Shown here: positions 25,145 through 60,419 of the stretch, one piece after another
How positions within the stretch are numbered: position 1 is the first letter of the stretch
Layout of the letters: each line of letters begins with the position of its first letter
IMG/VR virus record: IMGVR_UViG_3300021426_000077
Span: 36,428 to 100,427 of that record
Source: a virus
Lineage: Duplodnaviria > Caudoviricetes
Direction: 5' to 3' (one strand)
DNA length: 64,000 bases
Made by a program: the position numbers and the translations under genes
Notes under the pieces: model-generated
Databases searched by the model: none
Seen by the model: only the letters and a program-made list of their open reading frames with translations
Told to the model about the DNA's origin: nothing

Positions 25145-26893
25145 TTAATTATAAAACATAAAGTCTTTAATATTTCTTCTTTTAATTTTCTTTGAACGAT
25201 CTTCTTGTAATTTACAATAATATAAACCATAAATTAGAGCAGAAAACTTATCTTTTTTAATCTTTTTTGAATTCTGTTTTAAAATAATATTTGCACCTTC
25301 ATTATCTGTAATTAAATTAGCCATTTGTTCTTTTAAAATAGAAGTTTGAACAAATGGCATCAGATAATCTGCACGTTGAGATTGAGACATTTTCTTACCT
25401 TGAGCTTGTGACATTAATTTATTCTTCGCGGTAGTCTCGTCAATTAGAAATAACACGCGGCCCGCATTAATCTCTGACTGAGTATAAGAATACATTTCTG
25501 AGTTAAGACCAACATTAGCTTTCATTATATACATAGCTTCATATATTGTATTTTCAGTTTTCATATTTTTGTAATGATTATCTTCATCATTCATAACGCC
25601 CCAATTATAGAGCGTTTCTCCCGTGTCTGGATCTACAGTATCCATTGTCAACATATCAACAAGACCTGCGCCTAAACCGTTACCGTCGATAACCGCAACT
25701 TTACAGTGATATTGCTGGAATAAACGCTTTAATTTAAGAGCTTGCATACCAAAATGCTCTTCCTCAAAACTGTAAATATTAACAACTCGTTTGCGGGGAA
25801 TATCGCCAGAACTAGGAGTGACCTTAATAATAACTGCTTCTGTAGAACAACCAAATCTACCAACGTCAACACCAATTACATAATAACCATCTTTAGATGT
25901 TTTGCTAGAATATTTTCATTCCGGAAGATTAATACGGCGATTGCGATCAAATCTTTCTGAATTAAAGAAGGCAGACTCTACATCGCCTGACCAATGAGAT
26001 TCATACTCACGTTCAAAAGAATCCTCATTAAAAGTACCATCTTCGCGTAAATCCCGCACGAAATTCTTACTAAGAAGACCTTCCATTACAGGAACTCTCC
26101 AAGAGCCACCTAAAATCATAGCTTCTTTTGGACGCGCTACAGACATGCAAAGTAACTGAATAAGTTTCTCATAGCTAAATGTGCCTTTATAGCCTGCTGA
26201 AGTTACAAAAATTTGTGATTTATTTAATTGCTCTTTTGGATCAGTCTGACCTTGAATCATACGGTCAACATTAAGTGTAGGAAGTAAAACTTCATTAAGA
26301 AGATCTTGATCTAAGCTTACACATTCCTCCGCAAGTAAACTTTGAAAACGACGTCCACGAGTCTTTTCACTTTGAGCAACATTTTCTAGAGAACTGCCAT
26401 TTTTAAAAGTATAAATAACAGTATCTTTTGTGCGGGATGTTCGAGCACGTGTACCTCTAGTATCTCATATAATTTCTCGTTCCATTGCTGGAATAAGTTT
26501 ACAAATTTCGTCTACTTTTCCGCCAAGAATTTCTGCAGATTGTCCTTTACCGCCCGCAACAGTAGCTATTTTAGCACCAGGATAAAGAACACATCGCAAC
26601 ATTAATGCCATAATAGAAATAAAAGACTTGGATCAAGCACGAACGAAAGTCGCATAGACATATTTATGTCTAAAAATAATTCGTAAAAACATTCTTTGAT
26701 AAAAATAAAATTTAAAATTATATGGATTTCCAAGAGATAGATAGTAATCAACTAATTTATCTGGATAAAGACGTCAATAAGCAATTAATTTTTGATATTC
26801 TGATAAATTATTATGTACATGTAATTTAATTGTTTCATCATCTAAATCTATATCTTTTTTATTAGATGTTTTTAATATATCTCTAAGAGCCAT
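25145..26893 (-). CDS. terL: terminase large subunit (TGA=Trp)
   Basis: Walker A-like RAW*SKSF, RGRRFQSLLAEEC, VTSAG motif, nuclease GVDVGR / IDGNGLG / KDKFSAL; all in one frame. Confidence 0.92.
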
Positions 26894-36386: not shown

Positions 36387-36523
36387 AAATCAAGTAGTTT
36401 GAGAGTATCTACACAAAAACTCCACGTTCTTAGCCGGCCACAATTGTGAAGATTCTGTGAAGGTATTCACATTCTTTCTATTCTGTGTTAAACTATGTTT
36501 GTCCAGGAGAGAAAGGAAAAAAT

Positions 36524-48412: not shown

Positions 48413-49609
48413 TTACTTAGCCTTGAAATTCCAAACAGGGTACATATGAGCTATAATATCTGCATTAGGATGAATTGCCTGGATGATCGCCTCCGCATCC
48501 TTATATGCCATAGGAGCCTCATCGAGAGTCTCCTCGACTACAGAAGAAGAAGCAATACCATCCATTGCATTCTGAAAATCCTTAAGAGTCAACTGATTGC
48601 GGGCCTGCCCTCGCGACATGACACGACCAGCACCATGCGGCAATGAGCAGTTCCAATCCTCATTTCCAAGAGAACGAACAATGAGAATTCCATCGCGCAT
48701 ATTCAGAGGGATAAGACCAATCTGACCCTTATATCCCTCAATAGCGCCCTTGCGGATAATGTGATGATCAACATCTACATAGTTATGAATACAAGTAATC
48801 TTCTGCGGATCAAATGCCCATCCCATATACTTAGCAACCTCACGATAGATTGCCATATGAGAGCGATAAGAAAACTCGTTGCAAATCTTCATATCATGGA
48901 GATAGTGCTCCATATCTTCACCCTCAAGATAGCAAAGATCATCCGCAGGCTCAGCCGCAATTATCTCACGGCAAAGCTCAATCCATCCCTGGATACGATC
49001 AACACGATTAATTGCGCGAAGCGCTGCAATTCCCATCTTCTGATGAAGTCGATGCTGTTCTATACGCTCATTGCGACGATCGATTGCAATCTGCTGATAA
49101 TACTCAGCAATCTGCTTTCCAAGGTTGCGGGATCCGCAATGAATTACAAACCAATACTGATTATACTCAGAATTATAATCAAGCTCGAGATAGTGATTTC
49201 CACCACCAAGAGTTCCCATAGACTTGCGGAGACGATCATGATTCTGCAGGTAGTCCCAGCAGTAAAGATCCTCATATGGAAAATCTACAGAAAGCTCATG
49301 CTCAACAGAACGAACATCAAAGCCAGTCGGGATATACTCTCGACAAACCTGATCCAGATACTCGCAATCAATATTATCAGAGTTAACAAGAAAAGCAGAC
49401 ACACGGCAAGCAATATCTACGCCTACGGTGCCAGGAACAATCTTATCCTTAAACTCAATGGTCGAGCCAACAACCGCACCCTTCCCCGCATGAGCATCAG
49501 GCATGATGCGAATCTTAGAATCTCGATACGCAGGAGAATTAGCAAATGCGTCAATCTGCTCAATGGTAACAAGGTCATTACCAACCATAAAGTTCTTAAG
49601 ATCAGCCAT
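48413..49609 (-). CDS. rtcB: RtcB RNA ligase
   Basis: IMPDAHAGKG, VGVDIAC, GTLGGGNHYLE, HCGSRNLG, HNY, RKGA, SLPHGAGR, LDEAPMAYK. Confidence 0.96.
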   Translation of the reverse strand: MADLKNFMVGNDLVTIEQIDAFANSPAYRDSKIRIMPDAHAGKGAVVGSTIEFKDKIVPGTVGVDIACRVSAFLVNSDNIDCEYLDQVCREYIPTGFDVRSVEHELSVDFPYEDLYCWDYLQNHDRLRKSMGTLGGGNHYLELDYNSEYNQYWFVIHCGSRNLGKQIAEYYQQIAIDRRNERIEQHRLHQKMGIAALRAINRVDRIQGWIELCREIIAAEPADDLCYLEGEDMEHYLHDMKICNEFSYRSHMAIYREVAKYMGWAFDPQKITCIHNYVDVDHHIIRKGAIEGYKGQIGLIPLNMRDGILIVRSLGNEDWNCSLPHGAGRVMSRGQARNQLTLKDFQNAMDGIASSSVVEETLDEAPMAYKDAEAIIQAIHPNADIIAHMYPVWNFKAK

Positions 49610-50209
49610 AATTCTCCCTCTTTTCTCATTTTCTTTAATTATATTATAACATAAAAAAAGAGCTTCTGTCAATAATTATCTTACCGACAAAAGCTCTACA
49701 ATTTAAAGATCAAGTTTATGAATAATATCTTCGTAAGTAAAATGATTATCAATCATATCTTTAATGTGAGGAATTTTACCTTGACTGTAGTAATCATTAT
49801 ACTTATCCCAAACCTTTGTAGTATCATTGAGACTATATCGTCCAGGGATTGGAACTGCATACCCCGCAGAGCCGTCACTTTCGGGAAAAAGCTGATAAAG
49901 CTGACGATTTTGCTTAATTGCATACTTCATTTTCATTTATTTTCCTTCCTATATGTGACGTTTAATTAGCTTCTGGTAGAAGATTACTTGGACTTCCATC
50001 ATACTGACTAATTGTAAATCCTTGCGGAAAACGCAACTTAATAATTACTTCAGTATTTGCCGATGCAGGAAATTGACATATATCTTCATCTTCCCTATAG
50101 ATTTCAATTTCAGATATTGCGCCAGAGTAAGCCTGATAAGTTTCATCTGAACCATCTGAAAAAGCTACTGCAACAATTGCATCTCTTACTCTCTTAAATT
50201 TCTTCATAC

Positions 50210-53955: not shown

Positions 53956-54074
53956 ATTATTTCTCCTTTATATATATTAATTATTTATTAAAAATAAAAT
54001 AGGTTTACGACGGACTTCTTTATCGCGTCGTAGAGCCAGTTGGGGAGAGGGTAGACTTTGGTCATGGTGCCTCC

Positions 54075-55046
54075 TTAGTTGGAGTACTTGATGTAGATTT
54101 CGGGGAAGGTGCCATCGCCCTCGTAGGGCGCTGGGATGTTCGCCAGATTGAGCGCGAGGAACTTGTTCCCCCCGAAGCCCGTCCGTACCTCGTAGGAGGT
54201 GTAGGCTGTCTGCTCGATGATGTAGCCACTCTGCTCGTCCAGTCCCGTGATGGTGCGGAGGTAGACGGCCTGCACGGTCTTGGTTGCGCCGAGCGGGATG
54301 TTCAGCGACGTGCCCTCGACAGCCATGTTGAGCGCGGCCATGTTGAACGTAGCGATGATATTGTCGGGAAGCGTCATTTGCCCTGCTGGTGGATAGTCCC
54401 CAGCATAAATTCTGTCGACGGGCACAGCGTCGCCGCCCATGTAGTCGCTCGGCTCGTCGGTGCCCATGTCGATGTTGACATAGTTGCCGAAGCTCGCACC
54501 CCCGCCGCCAGAGCCTTCCACTTCCACCTTGACGGTGTGGGTGCCTGCGATCTGGGTAGCGATGTAGTTCTCGTTGGTGCTATTGCTGGAAATGGAGAAT
54601 GGAATCGTGGAGAAGTCGACTCTGCCGTCGACAGTTGGAGCGCCGTAGTAGTTAGCGCCCTCTTCATCATCATGTCTCTTCTGGCATGTGTACGTCGTGC
54701 CGTCGAACGTCACGTAGATGGTGTCGGCGTCGATGTACTGCGAGTAGGCAAGCTCTGCCTGCGCGACTGGAAACTCGCCCTGCTGCGCTGTCGTAACCGT
54801 CTCCTCGAACAGCACGGTCTTGAAGTTATTGTCTGTATTATCGCCATTATCTGGCGTATTTCCAATAGGATTATCTATATACATAATTCATTGTTTATTG
54901 TTATTACAAATATATGTATCACCCGTGTTAGCTACCAGGGCAGTTGATGCGGGTTCTTTAGGTAAAATTTCTAAATCTGCAATATCATCAACAAAAAATT
55001 TATGTGTATTGTGAATTGGGTCTGTTTCTAAAATTTTATAAATCAT
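54075..55046 (-). CDS. constant-N/variable-C putative virion protein 3 (TGA=Trp), GC-rich C-terminus
   Basis: Same N-module; TGA at 54888-54890; in frame with track ORF 54075-54884. Confidence 0.75.
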
Positions 55047-55171
55047 ATAATTTTCCTTTCTGTTGGGGAAAAATAATTTTACTATATAAATTAAAAATTA
55101 AGTTTAAATTTTAATAAAAAAAGACCCTTATACGAAATGTATAAGGGTCAATATAAACAGAGTATCTTCTG

Positions 55172-55242
55172 AGGCCATATTCAGAATCGAACTGAAGACA
55201 GGGCATTACAAGTGCCTTATTATACCATTTAACTATACGGCC
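55172..55242 (-). tRNA. tRNA-Thr(TGT)
   Basis: Cloverleaf; GGCA-CTTGTAA-TGCC; TTCGATT T-loop. Confidence 0.8.
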
Positions 55243-55263
55243 GCAGAAGATACTCGATATACT

Positions 55264-55340
55264 TGGAGATAACGAGAATCGAACTCGTGTCCAGGCATTT
55301 TCACTTTGGCTTTCAATGCCTGTCGAACCCATCTATCCCC
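55264..55340 (-). ncRNA. mini-tmRNA (tRNA-like domain only)
   Basis: GGGGATA...TTCGAC AGGCATT-loop-AATGCCT GGAC ACGAGTTCGATTCTCGT TATCTCC A; G3:U70 pair. Confidence 0.75.
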
Positions 55341-55575
55341 ATTGGAGCGGGCCACGTTTCAGTACCATCTTACTAGTCGTATTCTAATCCTTTATAAAAT
55401 CATGTCTAGAATTAATTTTATAAATTAAGGTACACCCGCATATAAAAATGACAGGCCCAACCCTATCTGGCAGAGGATTACCCCTGGAGTTTCCCAGCTT
55501 TCACAGGTGACTAAAGTCATATATGCGACCAGGTGGAGAGCCCATTATACCTGCGGGCTCGCTGTTATTGTCATA

Positions 55576-55649
55576 TGGCTGGGACTGAGAGAATCGAACT
55601 CCCATTAGCGGAACCAAAATCCGCGGTCTTGCCGTTAGACGAAGTCCCA
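55576..55649 (-). tRNA. tRNA-Gln(TTG)
   Basis: GCGGA-TTTTGGT-TCCGC; encoded CCA. Confidence 0.92.
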
Positions 55650-55652
55650 ATT

Positions 55653-56156
55653 TTATTGATCAGAATTAATAGGTAGATCTGTACAGAAGAATACGCCAGA
55701 ATGCTTACCTTCAAACACATCTCGAGCGAGATCTTCGTAAAGAGTTGATTCAAAACCATGATAGTCATTTAGATTATCATTATAATATTGAACAACCTCA
55801 TTACGAAAAAGCATATAAGAAACAGGATTAGAGAAAATACTAGGAGTATCAATCATCCTTGACATAATAGGATTATTATGAAAAGCTGCTTCAAATAAAT
55901 CGGCATTAGTATTACCATTATTAGCAGGAACAACCTTAATTGAAAGTGTAACATTTCCAAAATTTTTAGTAGAAGGAAGAAGTTGACCTAATGCATCTGC
56001 TTTGGTTACACCTTCTACATAAAGTGTTAGAATTAGTTCGTCTTCATCAAACTTAATAGTAATATTTGGATCTGGATTAAATAGAGCTTCAATTTTATGA
56101 ACATAAGAGGTCCAAGGTGAAGCAAGTCCTACCGAAGAATTGATTGATTTAGACAT
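55653..56156 (-). CDS. hypothetical phage protein
   Basis: VVQYYNDNLNDYHG...LYEDLARDVF...VFFCTD. Confidence 0.7.
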   Translation of the reverse strand: MSKSINSSVGLASPWTSYVHKIEALFNPDPNITIKFDEDELILTLYVEGVTKADALGQLLPSTKNFGNVTLSIKVVPANNGNTNADLFEAAFHNNPIMSRMIDTPSIFSNPVSYMLFRNEVVQYYNDNLNDYHGFESTLYEDLARDVFEGKHSGVFFCTDLPINSDQ

Positions 56157-56181
56157 ATTCCATACCTCTTTCTATTTTAAA

Positions 56182-56255
56182 TGGAGCGGATAGCGGATCC
56201 CGAGACCGCATCTGGAGCTTGGAAGGCTCTTATTCTGCCTTTGAACTATACCCGC
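56182..56255 (-). tRNA. tRNA-Gly(TCC), atypical T-loop
   Basis: GAGC-CTTCCAA-GCTC; GCGGGTA/TATCCGC-TCCA. Confidence 0.85.
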
Positions 56256-56264
56256 ATATGCATA

Positions 56265-56341
56265 TGGCGCCCTTTGCGAGAATCGAACTCACAACTTTTG
56301 GCTTAGGAGGCCAACGCTCTGTCCTATTGAGCTAAAAGGGC
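56265..56341 (-). tRNA. tRNA-Arg(CCT)
   Basis: TTGGC-CTCCTAA-GCCAA; CCA end. Confidence 0.93.
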
Positions 56342-56377
56342 AAATATAGAAATTCTACATATTGTAGAAGTAATATG

Positions 56378-56453
56378 TGGTACATCCTGTGAGACTCGAA
56401 CTCACGCTCTTTCGATTAAGAGTCGATTGCTTTACCATCTAAGCTAAGGATGT
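56378..56453 (-). tRNA. tRNA-Lys(CTT)
   Basis: TCGA-CTCTTAA-TCGA; CCA end. Confidence 0.92.
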
Positions 56454-56454
56454 A

Positions 56455-56532
56455 TGGCTCCTCAAGTAGGATTTGAACCTACGACACGCGGATTAACAGT
56501 CCGTTGCGCTAACCAGGCTGCGCTATTGAGGA
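56455..56532 (-). tRNA. tRNA-Asn(GTT)
   Basis: CGGA-CTGTTAA-TCCG; CCA end. Confidence 0.93.
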
Positions 56533-56542
56533 ATTTATATAG

Positions 56543-56672
56543 TCGCGGATATATTTAAAACAGTATAATATCGTGCTCTACCTTTGAGCTAAGTAAACAT
56601 TTGTTTACTATTGGATTCGAACCAATAACATCGCCTTTAATCAGAGGAAGTAACTGTTTTACCATCACGCAA
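56543..56672 (-). ncRNA. YrlA-like RNA with circularly permuted tRNA domain
   Basis: T-arm, then loop-closed acceptor AGTAAAC-AAAT-GTTTACT, then D-arm, inside a TGAT..TACTTC terminal stem. Confidence 0.7.
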
Positions 56673-56675
56673 TAA

Positions 56676-57005
56676 TTAACTTATATATTTATTACCATCT
56701 CGTTTTCAAGTTATTTTAGGAGTTAGATTTATAGGTTCTTTTTGATAATCTTCTCTTCATAGCTTATTACTTAAATCTTTAAGAGCTTTTTTAGTTTCTG
56801 GCCCAAGAGGAAAACCATCTAAATCTTCCCATAATTTCTCAATATCTCGATCTTTAGAATGAAAATATCTATCTATGATTCCCGCATAATCATCATACAT
56901 AATTTCTAGAATTCCAATAGGAACCCAAATATTTTGATCTGCGGCTTCCATATCTTCAATTTCATGGATGATCATTATAAAATTATTCTTAGAAAATTTA
57001 GCCAA
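56676..57005 (-). CDS. hypothetical protein (TGA=Trp)
   Basis: Reads through two TGA to TAA at 56676. Confidence 0.55.
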
Positions 57006-57055
57006 ATCTACCTCCTTAAAAAAAAATAAGCCAAAGTAGATTTGGCTATTCTATT

Positions 57056-57718
57056 TTAATCTGTAGCATATTTTCATTCATACCCGTATGCAGTATGACG
57101 CTGATTTTGATTTTTACAAACTCTACCAATGCAAATACTAATATTATTAAGCTGACCTGTTGAGATTTTTTGATCATAAACCCATTGAGCAGCTTCTCTT
57201 TGAGAATTAAAACTTTTTATTATTTGCCCGTTTTTTAAAGCAATAACCTTTTTAGAATTTCTTTTATGAGCATTAATTTGTGTATTTTTAATACCAGAAT
57301 TTAATAATACTCTATGAACAGTATCAGAATCACATTCAAAAACATTACAAATTTCTTTAATTAATTTTCCTTGAGAAAACAAATCAATCATTTTTTGATA
57401 ATCTTCTAAAGAATAAGTCATTCTTCCATCTCCGCCTGGAGTGGCATTATACCCTTTAGAATAACTCCCATAATAATTTATTCAATAAATTTCTCTATCT
57501 GAAAGAATTGAAATATCGCATTCTTCAATTAATTCTATATAAAAATGTTCTGAACCATATTTATTAATTGCTCGATACAAAGGTCTATGTTCATAATCTC
57601 GTCTAGGAGCATCTTTAAGATGTTCTTTAAAACGATCTTCTATCGTAGGTAATAAAGTTTTACCAATATAAACCTTATCATTAATATCATTTTTTATGAT
57701 ATAAATTTTTCCAATCAT
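57056..57718 (-). CDS. GIY-YIG homing endonuclease with NUMOD1-like domain (TGA=Trp)
   Basis: GKIYIIKN...VYIGKT...RFKEH...REIYW*I...GYNATPGGDG...TAYGYEW*KY. Confidence 0.9.
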
Positions 57719-57819
57719 AAAATTTACCTGCCAATCTTTAATATTTTTCTTTATTTTAAATAAAAATTGGCAGGTTTTTATAATAAAAACTTGCCCAATT
57801 TTGGCAAGTTTGCCAAATT

Positions 57820-57911
57820 CACGCCCTGAAGGATTCGAACCCTCACCCGAGGTTTTGGAGGCCTCTACCCAGGTTTTGAAGACCTGTGTGCTACCATTAC
57901 ACTAAGGACGT
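57820..57911 (-). tRNA. tRNA-Trp with UCA (opal-reading) anticodon arm plus a second CCA anticodon arm
   Basis: ACGTCCT TA GTGT AATGGTA GCAC A CAGGT-CTTCAAA-ACCTG GGTA GAGGC-CTCCAAA-ACCTC GGGT GAGGG-TTCGAAT-CCTTC AGGGCGT G. Confidence 0.85.
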
Positions 57912-57914
57912 ATA

Positions 57915-57990
57915 TGGTCGCGAGATGCTGGTGTTGCTCCAGCTTTCTCCGGCTTATGAGACCGGATCAGATACTGACCTGCCATCCGCA
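57915..57990 (-). tRNA. tRNA-Met(CAT), atypical
   Basis: CCGGT-CTCATAA-GCCGG; T-loop AGCAACA; CCA end. Confidence 0.7.
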
Positions 57991-57993
57991 ATA

Positions 57994-58069
57994 TGGTAGC
58001 GTGTACCAGATTTGAACTGGTGATCACTGGCTTGAAAGGCCAGGGTCCTTACCGCTAGACGAACACGCC
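57994..58069 (-). tRNA. tRNA-Glu(TTC)
   Basis: CTGGC-CTTTCAA-GCCAG; CCA end. Confidence 0.92.
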
Positions 58070-58077
58070 ATATAATT

Positions 58078-58482
58078 TAATGTGGAAATTTTGTGTATTC
58101 TAAAATTATGCGACCCCGTAAAAAAATATCGCATATATATATTATAAAATAAGGGAGAGGTACACGAATCTAACATGTAAGAGGAGGAACTCTAGAAAGG
58201 AGAACAACAGATCCGCTTTATTATTCTTTCTTTAAGACTTAGGAAGTAAGAACACACCCATCACACATTATTAAAATCAAAAGGAGCGTGCGGAAATACT
58301 TAATTTAGTTTTTGCTATACCAAGCAATAAAAAGGCGGTATTAATATTTTTCATGAATATTTGAAGTAACTAAATTACAATCACGCACTTTAAATTTTAG
58401 AGGAAATTTTAGAAAACGTAGATTTTGCATTATCACCAACATAATATTATGATTTTGAAGTAACGTTTTCTCTATCACTCTA
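58078..58482 (-). ncRNA. three tandem TGAT/TACTTC-motif RNAs (58398-58482, 58288-58388, 58078-58270)
   Basis: Same covarying terminal stems as 56543-56672; preceded by a TTGACA/TATAAT promoter at 58487-58516. Confidence 0.7.
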
Positions 58483-58521
58483 TTTATATTATAACAAAAT
58501 ATTTCTATTTTGTCAAATATT

Positions 58522-58607
58522 TGGTACGGGTAGTGGGACTCGGACCCACAAGAGCTGTGCTCGGCAGATTTTAAGTCTGCTGCGTTTGCCAATTTCGCCA
58601 TACCCGC
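58522..58607 (-). tRNA. tRNA-Leu(TAA)
   Basis: GCAGA-CTTAAAA-TCTGC; long variable arm; CCA end. Confidence 0.92.
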
Positions 58608-58609
58608 AT

Positions 58610-58683
58610 TGGTTGCCGTGGATGGTTACGCTCCATCTTCTCCCGATTATAAGTCAGGTGCCCTGCTATTGTGCTACACGGCA
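58610..58683 (-). tRNA. tRNA-Ile(TAT), atypical T-loop
   Basis: CCTGA-CTTATAA-TCGGG; CCA end. Confidence 0.78.
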
Positions 58684-58689
58684 TTAAAA

Positions 58690-59791
58690 AACTGCGGCGG
58701 AGCGAGTCACCGCAGTAGAATTCTGTGTTTTCGGGTACACAGCAACCGCCCTTCCTCGGGGATAAGGTAGTGCTCTAAGTCACAATCATGGGCATCACAC
58801 CCTTCTTGTCAAGTGGTTTAATTTAATAAAATTAAAGCTTTAGACAATCAATTGCTACCAACTCCTTTTCAAAGAATTAAGCACCTATACCTATGACCTT
58901 AGAGAATTAGTTTAAATCCAGGTTCACCACGTGGAGGTTTCTCTATGAACCCATACGCTTTCTTTTGGTATCCTCATGCGGGATCACCTAGGGCAAGAAA
59001 GCTTAACTAGCCCTGACCTTGGGGATTTCCGGACTCCCGCAAGGAACCTTTATTCAGGTTTATTTTCCATCGCCCTGTTACGATGCGGTCATTTTTTTTT
59101 AAAGACGAGAAAGCCCCGTGTAAGAAAACTCGTCTATACGTTGCATCACCAATATCCTTTCTGGCACCATACCCGCTCTCGGGTAGGGGCGGACTCGAAC
59201 CACCAATGTATAGCAACGAGACACTACTGAGATCACGGATAAGGCGTAGCGTCCACACTCCTTAGCGACTCCATTTTTTTATTTTTAGTCCTTTGTCGCG
59301 CTCGGACTGACTTTGGTTTTACTTCCCACGTCAAAAGAAGGAGCTTTGGTCAGAAGCTCATAAAAACGACCTGCTAGCTAACATCATGCACCTGTTTTAG
59401 CTTAAAGGTTCTGCGCGGTAAGCATGATTTCCGCAGACGCCATCTGATTCCCTCAGTGAGTATAGATAAAATGCCCCACCAGCAATGTCGTCTTTCTTTT
59501 TTAGCTTAAAGTCTGAGGAAACAGGTTAATACTCAGACTTAGAAGTGATTTTAAAGACCTACGCTTCTCACGGTCTCAAAGGTGATATTATAGACCTACG
59601 CCTTCAACGGTCTTAATTGGCTTAGCAACTTTCTGTGCTGGTCCAGTCGTATCGTTCTATCCAGCCGCCGTTTCCGAAGGTAGCTACTCCTTCATCTGGA
59701 ACTGCTTATATGGGGACACGGATTTGTACCCCATACCTATATCGTAGGTGTTGCGTCTCTCAGAGAATTTCCGCGGTTACTCTGAGTCCCC
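58690..59791 (-). ncRNA. candidate large or multiple structured ncRNA(s)
   Basis: No credible ORF; elevated GC; many hairpins including a GTTCGAGT T-arm; strong promoter at 59828-59857. Confidence 0.55.
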
Positions 59792-60419
59792 TATTGCCAA
59801 TTTATTCTTTTTTCATTTTCTATATATATTATAACATATTTTATTGTCTCTTGTCAAGAACTTTTTTCTAGCTTTGATTATCTGTGTTTAGAAGATAATC
59901 ACCACCTTTCCTTGACTTTCTTTAATTATATTATAACATATTTTTTATTCTATTGTCAATCTTTATTTTTTGGATCAGATTGCCCTTCTTGTGAGACGAA
60001 AAGAAGATACCTGCGGCGCTTGATCCCCGCTCACTTTACTAGAATATTTATCGTCTACTAGTCTAGACTAGATGCCTTTCACATCAGATATTTCCTAAGA
60101 AGTCTCTCAACTTCTTTAATTATATTATAACATAAAATTATAACATATGTCAAATATAATTTTTTGTCTAATTGAAAATATAATATTTATCTAAGGTTTC
60201 TGGCGCTAGCATTGTGCCAATTTTTTCTATAGTATCTTTATTCATTACAAATAGATCATCTGTAAACATAGCAGATAAATCTTTAATCCATCTTTTTTCA
60301 TTAAAAGTACAATTTGGATGTCTTAAATTTTGCTTAAAACAATAATCAAATATATATTGTTGTTTTGCTATATTAAGAAGATTATCTACATCTTGAACAC
60401 TTAAATTACTCATAATAAA

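Follow-up and report, generated by a model that had tools for sequence, protein, structure and literature searches.

A phage opal-suppressor tRNA-Trp with a second, CCA-bearing hairpin, a candidate pseudo-anticodon for the host synthetase

Introduction

How can a phage that brings no synthetase of its own have a standard-code host charge a stop-codon tRNA correctly, when a change of anticodon usually destroys the identity of a tRNA for anticodon-reading synthetases such as tryptophanyl-tRNA synthetase (TrpRS) and GlnRS? The question is raised by a 92-nt tRNA gene on the minus strand (positions 57820-57911) of a 64,000-nucleotide stretch of DNA from a rumen virus of the Caudoviricetes, here called the window (IMG/VR record IMGVR_UViG_3300021426_000077, positions 36,428 to 100,427). 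Between its D arm and its T arm this tRNA carries two hairpins in tandem, the first (arm 1) with the opal-reading anticodon UCA and the second (arm 2) with the anticodon CCA. A first-pass annotation of the window had offered three models: that decoding falls to the UCA arm and the identity for the host TrpRS comes from the CCA arm, that the tRNA toggles between reading UGG and UGA, or that one arm is excised and the ends are religated, possibly by the phage RtcB.

We find that the gene is the phage's own UGA-decoding Trp tRNA, and we consider it probable that arm 2 is a pseudo-anticodon which gives the host TrpRS its identity element. The evidence comes from the anatomy of the tRNA and the genetic code of the phage, from the covariation of both arms among relatives, from the correspondence between the extra loop and the identity of the suppressor, and from published cell-free data in which relatives of this tRNA had been assayed.

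Results

A tRNA with two anticodon-like arms

The gene at 57820-57911 (minus strand) encodes a tRNA-Trp(UCA) of the opal-suppressor kind, in which the acceptor stem, D arm and T arm are canonical and G73 is present, as the first-pass annotation had described it. Its full length is matched by the Rfam tRNA family RF00005 (57.5 bits, the gathering score being 29, over model positions 1-71); in this alignment the UCA arm takes the place of the anticodon arm and 22 nt form an insert in the variable region. Unless another basis is given, the elements that follow, all on the minus strand, were read from the sequence. The 5' strand of the acceptor stem, ACGUCCU (57905-57911), pairs with 57821-57827, where the 3' strand AGGGCGU (57827-57821) is followed by the discriminator G73 (57820); the seven base pairs include A1-U72 (57911 with 57821) and one U·G. 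UA separates the stem from the D arm GUGU-AAUGGUA-GCAC (57888-57902), which is of tRNA-Trp type by its similarity to Bacillus phage tRNAs and to 63 relatives, and A26 stands between the D arm and arm 1. Arm 1, CAGGU-CUUCAAA-ACCUG (57870-57886, UCA at 57879-57877), is the decoding anticodon arm according to the Rfam alignment. The linker GGUA (57866-57869) leads to arm 2, the putative pseudo-anticodon arm GAGGC-CUCCAAA-ACCUC (57849-57865, CCA at 57858-57856). The GGGU that follows (57845-57848) is a canonical 4-nt class I variable loop (NGGU, with U48 opposite A15) and the commonest type of 3' linker among relatives, and the T arm GAGGG-UUCGAAU-CCUUC (57828-57844) is supported by the sequence, by Rfam and by the alignment of relatives. 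The CCA end is not encoded, G73 being followed by AAU.

The loop of arm 2, CUCCAAA, is that of the tRNA-Trp anticodon arm (U33-CCA-A37), so that in the 7-nt loop of this hairpin the cognate sense anticodon stands between U33 and a purine at position 37. The UCA and CCA arms announced in the first-pass annotation as two complete anticodon stem-loops are both present, but the stem of arm 2 consists of four Watson-Crick pairs and a C·A at the loop-closing position, a mismatch common to the close relatives L013, L014 and L016. The C-G/G-C swap between the arms, seen at the same first reading, lies at the first stem pair. With the linker included, the two arms repeat in tandem over 21 nt, and 15 of the 21 positions are identical.

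Bacterial TrpRS identity consists of the anticodon CCA, G73 and the top of the acceptor stem (PMC9976931). G73 and A1-U72 are present in the window tRNA, the anticodon arm carries UCA, and CCA is confined to the second hairpin. The determinants of Bacillus subtilis TrpRS are G2-C71, G3-C70 and G4-C69, plus A1-U72 and G5-C68 (PMC9976931); the window tRNA has C2-G71, G3-C70, U4·G69 and C5-G68, against the B. subtilis-type G-C at all four pairs. The acceptor consensus of the family, AGGGG/CCCCU-G, equals the determinants listed for B. subtilis (PMC9976931), with G-C at pairs 2-71, 3-70, 4-69 and 5-68 in 51, 58, 46 and 45 of 63 relatives. Among 109 parsed relatives, G73 was found in 104 and A1-U72 in 97.

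ARAGORN labels the gene 'tRNA-SeC (tca)' because of its long variable region. We rejected a tRNA-Sec, whose acceptor/T domain would have to span 13 bp (8/5 in bacteria) and whose D stem 6 bp: the stems measure 7 bp (acceptor), 5 bp (T) and 4 bp (D), and genuine tRNA-Sec genes caught by the same scan pattern look different (GGAGGUGAC...). Over its 5' part, which runs from the acceptor stem into arm 1, the tRNA has 87-94% identity with stretches of Bacillus phages, for the most part annotated as tRNA-Trp. Neither the window nor the whole 100,427-bp virus record contains another Trp or opal tRNA, which extends to the record what had been claimed for the window.

TGA as a tryptophan codon

When TGA is read as sense, the longest open reading frame (ORF) grows from 600 to 2937 aa. 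The gene for the terminase large subunit (TerL, 25145-26893, minus strand, 582 aa), identified by tblastn to TerL of Bacillota phages with matches in Enterococcus, Geobacillus and SPbeta-like phages, contains four in-frame TGA. In homologues from six related records, the TGA columns of TerL hold W in 20 cells and Y or F in 19 cells, and one of these homologues has seven TGA and no TGG. The virus thus reads TGA as Trp, as the first-pass annotation had held, and the UCA-anticodon tRNA stands in a phage with in-frame TGA at Trp positions, as a code-4 opal suppressor does. The cultured TerL relatives infect Bacillota with the standard code. RtcB (48413-49672, minus strand) and other putative early genes are free of TGA.

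Conservation of the double arm

Pattern scans of viral (IMG/VR), metagenome and metagenome-assembled-genome contigs yielded 109 parsed second loops, the base of the loop counts given below, and 104 distinct sequences that combine G73 and a UCA arm with a second hairpin whose loop is N-U-CCA-A-A. With both loops specified in the pattern, 12 IMG/VR contigs were found; with the second loop left free, all 13 contigs recovered were dual-arm, four of them new. Dual-arm tRNAs also occur in contigs binned with Bacillota, Coriobacteriia, Bacteroides, Parabacteroides, Prevotella and Treponema. The scaffolds of the 104 relatives are of more than one kind, 63 having a Trp-type D arm and 41 belonging to other types, including some with class-II-like D arms.

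Both arms are paired well beyond expectation. In a fixed-offset parse of the 104 relatives, pairing reached 97% in arm 1 against 75% in shuffled strands, and 93% in arm 2 against 57% (maximum 62%). In a MAFFT alignment of the 63 members with a Trp-type D arm, the five-helix structure was 98.4% paired (79.8% in shuffles) with a covariation score of 0.49 (0.14 in shuffles). The second arm (helix 4) was 93.5% paired and showed double, compensatory changes at all five of its pairs; the acceptor helix was 100% paired with seven of seven pairs covarying, and the D arm was invariant or nearly so. The linker between the arms is mostly 3-6 nt long and variable in sequence, and the 3' linkers are of the types GGGU (33), AGGU (12), UGGU (7) and CGGU (6). 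The covariation bears out the earlier suggestion that both stems are maintained, and these alignments support the view that both arms are under selection.

A relic, that is, a tandem duplication of the anticodon arm which has not yet decayed, or else two alleles collapsed by the assembler, would be in keeping with the 21-nt repeat of the window and its 15 identical positions. A contig of an independent DNA sequencing run (X3, 2024, bovine gut, from a different study) spans 57706-57923 with zero differences, and this contig together with the 104 distinct relatives rules out a collapse of alleles. Nor would a neutral relic be expected on unrelated scaffolds, with stems that have diverged and covary around a fixed loop, or with the reciprocal specificity towards the amber/Gln tRNAs described below; we regard relic or artefact as the least credible of all the explanations considered, with next to no weight.

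By blastn with the window tRNA and with the relative L004, no dual-arm UCA relative was found in GenBank phages, which gave matches to half of the tRNA only, mostly annotated tRNA-Trp. One dual-arm tRNA with the UCA and UCCA loops lies in a cultured isolate, on a 1.48-Mb contig of Bacteroides neonati MS4 (L032, NZ_HG726020.1, 2951-3043, minus strand). The ORFs adjoining it carry one or two in-frame TGA; the locus is possibly prophage and could serve as a test system that can be grown in culture.

Correspondence between the extra loop and the anticodon

IMG/VR was scanned for a stop-anticodon loop followed by 28-44 nt and a T loop, with paired anticodon, T and acceptor stems required. Among 29 distinct tRNAs with the UCA loop (CUUCAAA), 27 showed U-CCA-R in the extra arm and none showed U-YUG-R, the Gln type; among 36 with the CUA loop (CUCUAAA), none showed U-CCA-R and 22 showed U-YUG-R. 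The split between these two sets gives a Fisher p of about 8e-20, uncorrected for relatedness. In the UCA set, U-CCA-R mostly spans positions 33-37 of a hairpin loop of 7 nt. Several further tRNAs of the CUA set carry YUGA without the preceding U, and this set has the acceptor hallmarks of Gln, namely G73 and a 1-72 pair that is weak or mismatched. As a control, phage tRNAs with a long arm and a real CCA anticodon (loop CUCCAAA) do exist, and none of the 18 distinct ones shows UCCA in that arm (U-YUG-R was not counted in this set). As far as these sequences tell, the extra arm shows the sense anticodon of the suppressor's own amino acid, and does so only where the real anticodon has become stop-reading.

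The amber/Gln counterparts (also L288-L401) are CUA suppressors of TAG-recoded phages whose second hairpin has the loop CUCUGAA, CUUUGAA or UUCUGAG. One of them lies in Phage Phass-1, in which TAG is Gln (OQ749652.1, 62456-62502, minus strand; L682), next to a single-arm CUA tRNA; the Phass-1 paper is silent on it. The gain in ORF length under TGA-sense or TAG-sense reading was too noisy per locus to separate the opal and amber sets. For ochre, a scan for UUA tRNAs with long variable arms gave six tRNA-like matches and no recurring loop. Single-arm UCA tRNAs with the same T loop amounted to 15 distinct sequences in IMG/VR, of which three had A1-U72 and G73; among the Trp-type opal suppressors of that database, the dual-arm form therefore predominates.

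Two observations were made on the tRNAs with a real CCA anticodon. A single case among the 18 (L534, IMGVR_UViG_3300048580_000535, about 1898-1949) shows the reverse layout, with a variable hairpin whose loop is CUUCAAG (UCA). tRNA-Trp is ordinarily class I, and there is a phage tRNA-Trp(CCA) lineage (L301, L357, L518, L546, L553, L564, L579 and others) which has A1-U72 or G1·U72 and G73 together with a class-II-like D arm and 20-25 nt in the variable arm.

The two arms differ in how strictly they are kept. In the relatives, arm 1 is strictly canonical, with the loop CUUCAAA closed by U-A or A-U without exception. Arm 2 is kept less strictly: G stands at position 32 in 55 of the 109 second loops, the closing pair 31-39 is mismatched in about one quarter, and in many amber analogues the second stem has only 3 bp. 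A purine at position 32 is very rare in working anticodon loops. The frequent G32, the mismatched closing pairs and the strictness of arm 1 fit a division in which arm 1 would be the decoder and arm 2 a protein-recognition element.

These features bear on the toggle of the first-pass annotation, a two-in-one decoder that stacks in two ways and places either arm on the ribosome to read UGA or UGG. Each arm has one canonical junction in the window tRNA and in other members with the Trp scaffold, and arm 2 keeps U33 and A37, both in favour of such a decoder. The G32, the closing mismatches, the 3-bp amber stems and the class-II-like scaffolds with non-canonical arm-2 junctions all speak against it, and U34 already reads UGG by wobble, so that a separate CCA decoder would add little. 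Strand exchange between the arms as the basis of a toggle was rejected as well, cross-pairing being no better than in shuffles (3.08 against 3.22). We hold the two-in-one decoder to be improbable.

Arm 2 could instead be read by a factor other than a synthetase, namely a modifying enzyme, a T-box leader that senses tRNA-Trp, some protein of the phage or a decoyed anticodon nuclease. A conserved loop on covarying stems does imply that something reads the loop sequence; moreover RtcB is encoded in the window, and phage tRNA arrays have been linked to anticodon-nuclease defence. However, the anticodon on show always matches the identity of the suppressor (Trp in the opal set, Gln in the amber set), a match that neither a nuclease decoy nor a generic factor would account for, and we know of no single modification enzyme that reads both CCA and YUG loops. 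T-boxes are essentially a feature of Bacillota, yet contigs binned with Bacteroides, Parabacteroides and Prevotella carry the design too. A non-synthetase reader is thus unlikely in our estimation, although it is the most serious competitor of the pseudo-anticodon.

Activity of dual-arm tRNAs in a cell-free system

Seki et al. 2025 (bioRxiv 10.1101/2025.10.30.685624) assayed in-vitro transcripts of 31 phage tRNA-UCA for suppression of UGA in sfGFP, in Escherichia coli extract with no added synthetase. We sorted their supplementary table into arm classes by eye, not by script. All 13 dual-arm tRNAs (UCA-1, 3, 4, 5, 6, 8, 9, 10, 14, 16, 17, 20 and 26) were active, with 26.7-58.9k relative fluorescence units (RFU) compared to a background of 5.4k and 69k for wild type (median 68% of wild type). 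Only two of the 18 other tRNAs were active, both single-arm with A1-U72 and G73 (Fisher p = 5e-7, Mann-Whitney p = 1e-5). Trp was inserted by all 13 tRNA-UCA that Seki et al. ran through mass spectrometry (10.1101/2025.10.30.685624). The nearest relative of the window tRNA, L014 (98% identical to it outside the two arms), has the same sequence as their tRNAUCA-16, which gave 33,990 RFU over a background of 5,403 (10.1101/2025.10.30.685624), and L003 is tRNAUCA-3, a positive control of that study. The tRNAs of AP1 (UCA-11) and HF2 (UCA-13), which lie beside a phage TrpRS in 'code-change' operons, are single-arm and were inactive without that enzyme. Dual-arm amber tRNAs were active in 18 of 23 cases, compared to 72 of 139 others (p = 0.014). 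These results show that full-length dual-arm relatives work on the bacterial ribosome and that they are charged with Trp by a heterologous TrpRS, without phage factor or splicing. For the role of arm 2 they are correlative: the comparison group is heterogeneous and the share of arm 2 is not isolated.

One tRNA of the same table combines features of the two sets. tRNACUA-44 (Cattle_ERR2019381_scaffold_760851) has a CUA anticodon and a Trp pseudo-anticodon arm, GAGGU-GUCCAAA-GCCUC, on a Trp-type scaffold, and was active on UAG (56k RFU). The amino acid that it inserts would be a natural test of the pseudo-anticodon idea.

The full-length activity also bears on the third of the earlier models, a processing switch in which about 21 nt, one arm, would be excised and the ends religated, for example by the phage RtcB. 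This enzyme is encoded at 48413-49672 by a gene without TGA, so that it could be made before the code switch. Yet the full-length transcripts suppress UGA in E. coli extract with no phage factor, RtcB (PF01139) occurs in only two of 16 records with a dual-arm tRNA and in none of the seven near-complete ones, and the class-II-like and amber versions lack the tandem duplication from which one copy could be cleanly removed. No intron family is matched by Rfam in 54000-60000, and there is no bulge-helix-bulge or group I intron signature. The processing switch appears very improbable, more so than the toggle.

Proposed mode of action

The pseudo-anticodon model would work as follows. To read UGA, C34 of tRNA-Trp has to become U, by which one identity element of TrpRS would be lost. 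Arm 1, with UCA, would serve as the working anticodon arm on the ribosome, and arm 2, in the position of a long variable arm, would present the ordinary tRNA-Trp loop; most likely, arm 1 is offered to the ribosome and arm 2 to the synthetase. We infer that arm 2 returns the cognate loop to the anticodon-binding domain of the host TrpRS, and that this contact improves charging and makes it efficient and Trp-specific. The loop might reach that domain by two routes. In the first, alternative stacking would place either arm under the D stem, which is conceivable in the subfamily of the window because the canonical 5' junction (D stem, A26) is preserved at arm 1 and the canonical 3' junction (NGGU with U48, T stem) at arm 2. 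In the second, arm 2 would reach the domain by way of its flexible linkers of 4-6 nt and 4 nt.

The presence of a charging enzyme in the phages was assessed with PF00579, the TrpRS/TyrRS family. It was found in none of 29 dual-arm phage records, several of them complete, and in two of 15 single-arm UCA records, in one case within 2.5 kb of the tRNA.

Several points weigh against arm 2 as an identity element. The contrast in TrpRS co-occurrence (0/29 against 2/15) lies in the predicted direction and is not significant (p = 0.11). E. coli TrpRS accepts UCA, and in E. coli extract the arm is not strictly required, as the single-arm, Trp-like tRNAUCA-12 and -18 were active there. The contrast of 13/13 with 2/18 is confounded, many of the 18 being low-confidence or non-Trp tRNAs. 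Class I synthetases dock with the variable region facing the solvent, so that a reading of arm 2 needs an unusual conformation or docking. In the metatranscriptome runs X15 and X16, no RNA contig lies over the dual-arm tRNA. Finally, arm 2 of the window has its C·A mismatch, and the minimum free energy (MFE) fold of the unmodified sequence lacks arm 2; the same MFE structure also lacks the T arm, and thermodynamic folding forms both hairpins in 68 of 104 relatives. We treat the MFE fold of an unmodified tRNA as uninformative.

The first of the three earlier models thus comes out ahead as a probable reading, favoured by the specificity of the loop, by the control with a real CCA anticodon and by the lack of a phage TrpRS; against it, two single-arm UCA tRNAs are active in E. 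coli extract as well. We are slightly less confident, while still leaning towards it, that the two sets reflect a general architecture of phage tRNAs, in which a stop-reading arm would face the ribosome and a separate arm with the sense anticodon (CCA for Trp/opal, CUG or UUG for Gln/amber) would face the host synthetase. Such a tRNA may change its conformation between one form for charging and another for decoding.

Neighbouring RNA elements and genes

Directly upstream of the dual-arm tRNA, at 57915-57985 (minus strand), lies a tRNA-like element with the hairpin CCGGU-CUCAUAA-GCCGG (CAU), a T loop of non-canonical type and ...GACCA encoded at its end. It is not called by ARAGORN, and its Rfam match to Tymo_tRNA-like is sub-threshold (32 against 40 bits). 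A gene for a GIY-YIG endonuclease (PF01541, E = 5e-7) at 57056-57718 (minus strand) starts about 100 nt downstream of the tRNA and needs two TGA read-throughs. At 55263-55340 (minus strand), a 78-nt RNA is matched by the Rfam tmRNA family (56.8 bits, gathering score 47) through its tRNA-like domain only; about 290 positions of the model are missing, including the tag ORF and the pseudoknots.

Metatranscriptome contigs from X15 and X16, which belong to two studies, cover 57952-58472 and 58603-58700 with a few shared differences, a region that comprises a tRNA-Glu and the ORF-poor stretch upstream of it. They hint that the RNA island of a relative is present in RNA libraries, which is no proof of transcription.

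Discussion

If arm 2 acts as proposed, codon reading and amino-acid identity, which are normally tied to each other in both of these anticodon-dependent systems, would be physically uncoupled within one tRNA. This would answer how a phage without a synthetase obtains correct charging of a stop-codon tRNA from a standard-code host. As dual-arm tRNAs are already functional in a published E. coli cell-free assay, the role of arm 2 is directly testable. The first-pass annotation knew of no natural tRNA of this design, and our literature searches likewise found no published description of a natural pseudo-anticodon arm, although such tRNAs sit unremarked in published data sets.

The nearest biological setting is that of the code-4 gut and rumen phages of Borges et al. 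(bioRxiv 10.1101/2021.08.26.457843), who detected suppressor tRNAs in only 35% of code-4 genomes and left open how the host TrpRS charges them. These phages resemble the one studied here in having a standard-code host, in-frame TGA in late and structural genes, and a UCA tRNA of their own, in the guts of cattle, sheep and other animals, and some of their tRNA sequences are identical to members of the derived library of Seki et al. They differ in that their tRNAs were treated as ordinary suppressors, with no mention of an anticodon-like second arm. Dual-arm tRNAs that are mislabelled or missed may partly explain why a suppressor is detected in so small a share of code-4 phages, and a covariance model of the dual-arm form would improve the prediction of phage codes.

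Jade phages (TrpRS, RF1 and tRNA(UCA)) and the TrpRS:tRNA pairs of AP1 and HF2 likewise place Trp on a UGA-reading tRNA in a standard-code cell. Unlike the dual-arm phages, in whose 29 records no TrpRS was found, they bring their own TrpRS, and their tRNAs have a single arm and show no activity when E. coli enzymes are the only ones present. Class II tRNAs and tRNA-Sec share with the present tRNA a long extra arm between the anticodon and T arms that serves synthetase recognition, a function that is here proposed. SerRS reads the length and orientation of this extra arm and not its loop sequence, whereas in the dual-arm tRNAs the loop sequence is the conserved feature.

Hairpins with a cognate loop that are bound by a synthetase are known from the thrS operator of E. 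coli and from viral tRNA-like structures, where a change of loop leads to binding of another synthetase (PMC9976931). Those mimics lie in mRNAs or viral genomes and serve regulation or 3'-end charging, whereas the candidate mimic described here lies inside a working elongator tRNA, beside the real anticodon; in the literature searched, no other natural anticodon-arm mimic inside a working tRNA is known. The closest parallel is engineered. Mukai 2020 (PMC7590224) shaped the long variable arm of an amber suppressor as the cognate anticodon arm and found aminoacylation measurably enhanced. In that design the arm recruits the anticodon-binding domain of the synthetase, as we propose by analogy for arm 2. 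It is synthetic, built on allo-tRNA scaffolds and combined with a HisRS fused to an extra anticodon-binding domain, while the phage tRNA is natural and presumably acts with the unmodified host TrpRS, or GlnRS for the amber analogues. If the proposal holds, phages would have arrived at a natural solution to a central problem of code engineering for which there has so far been an engineered design only.

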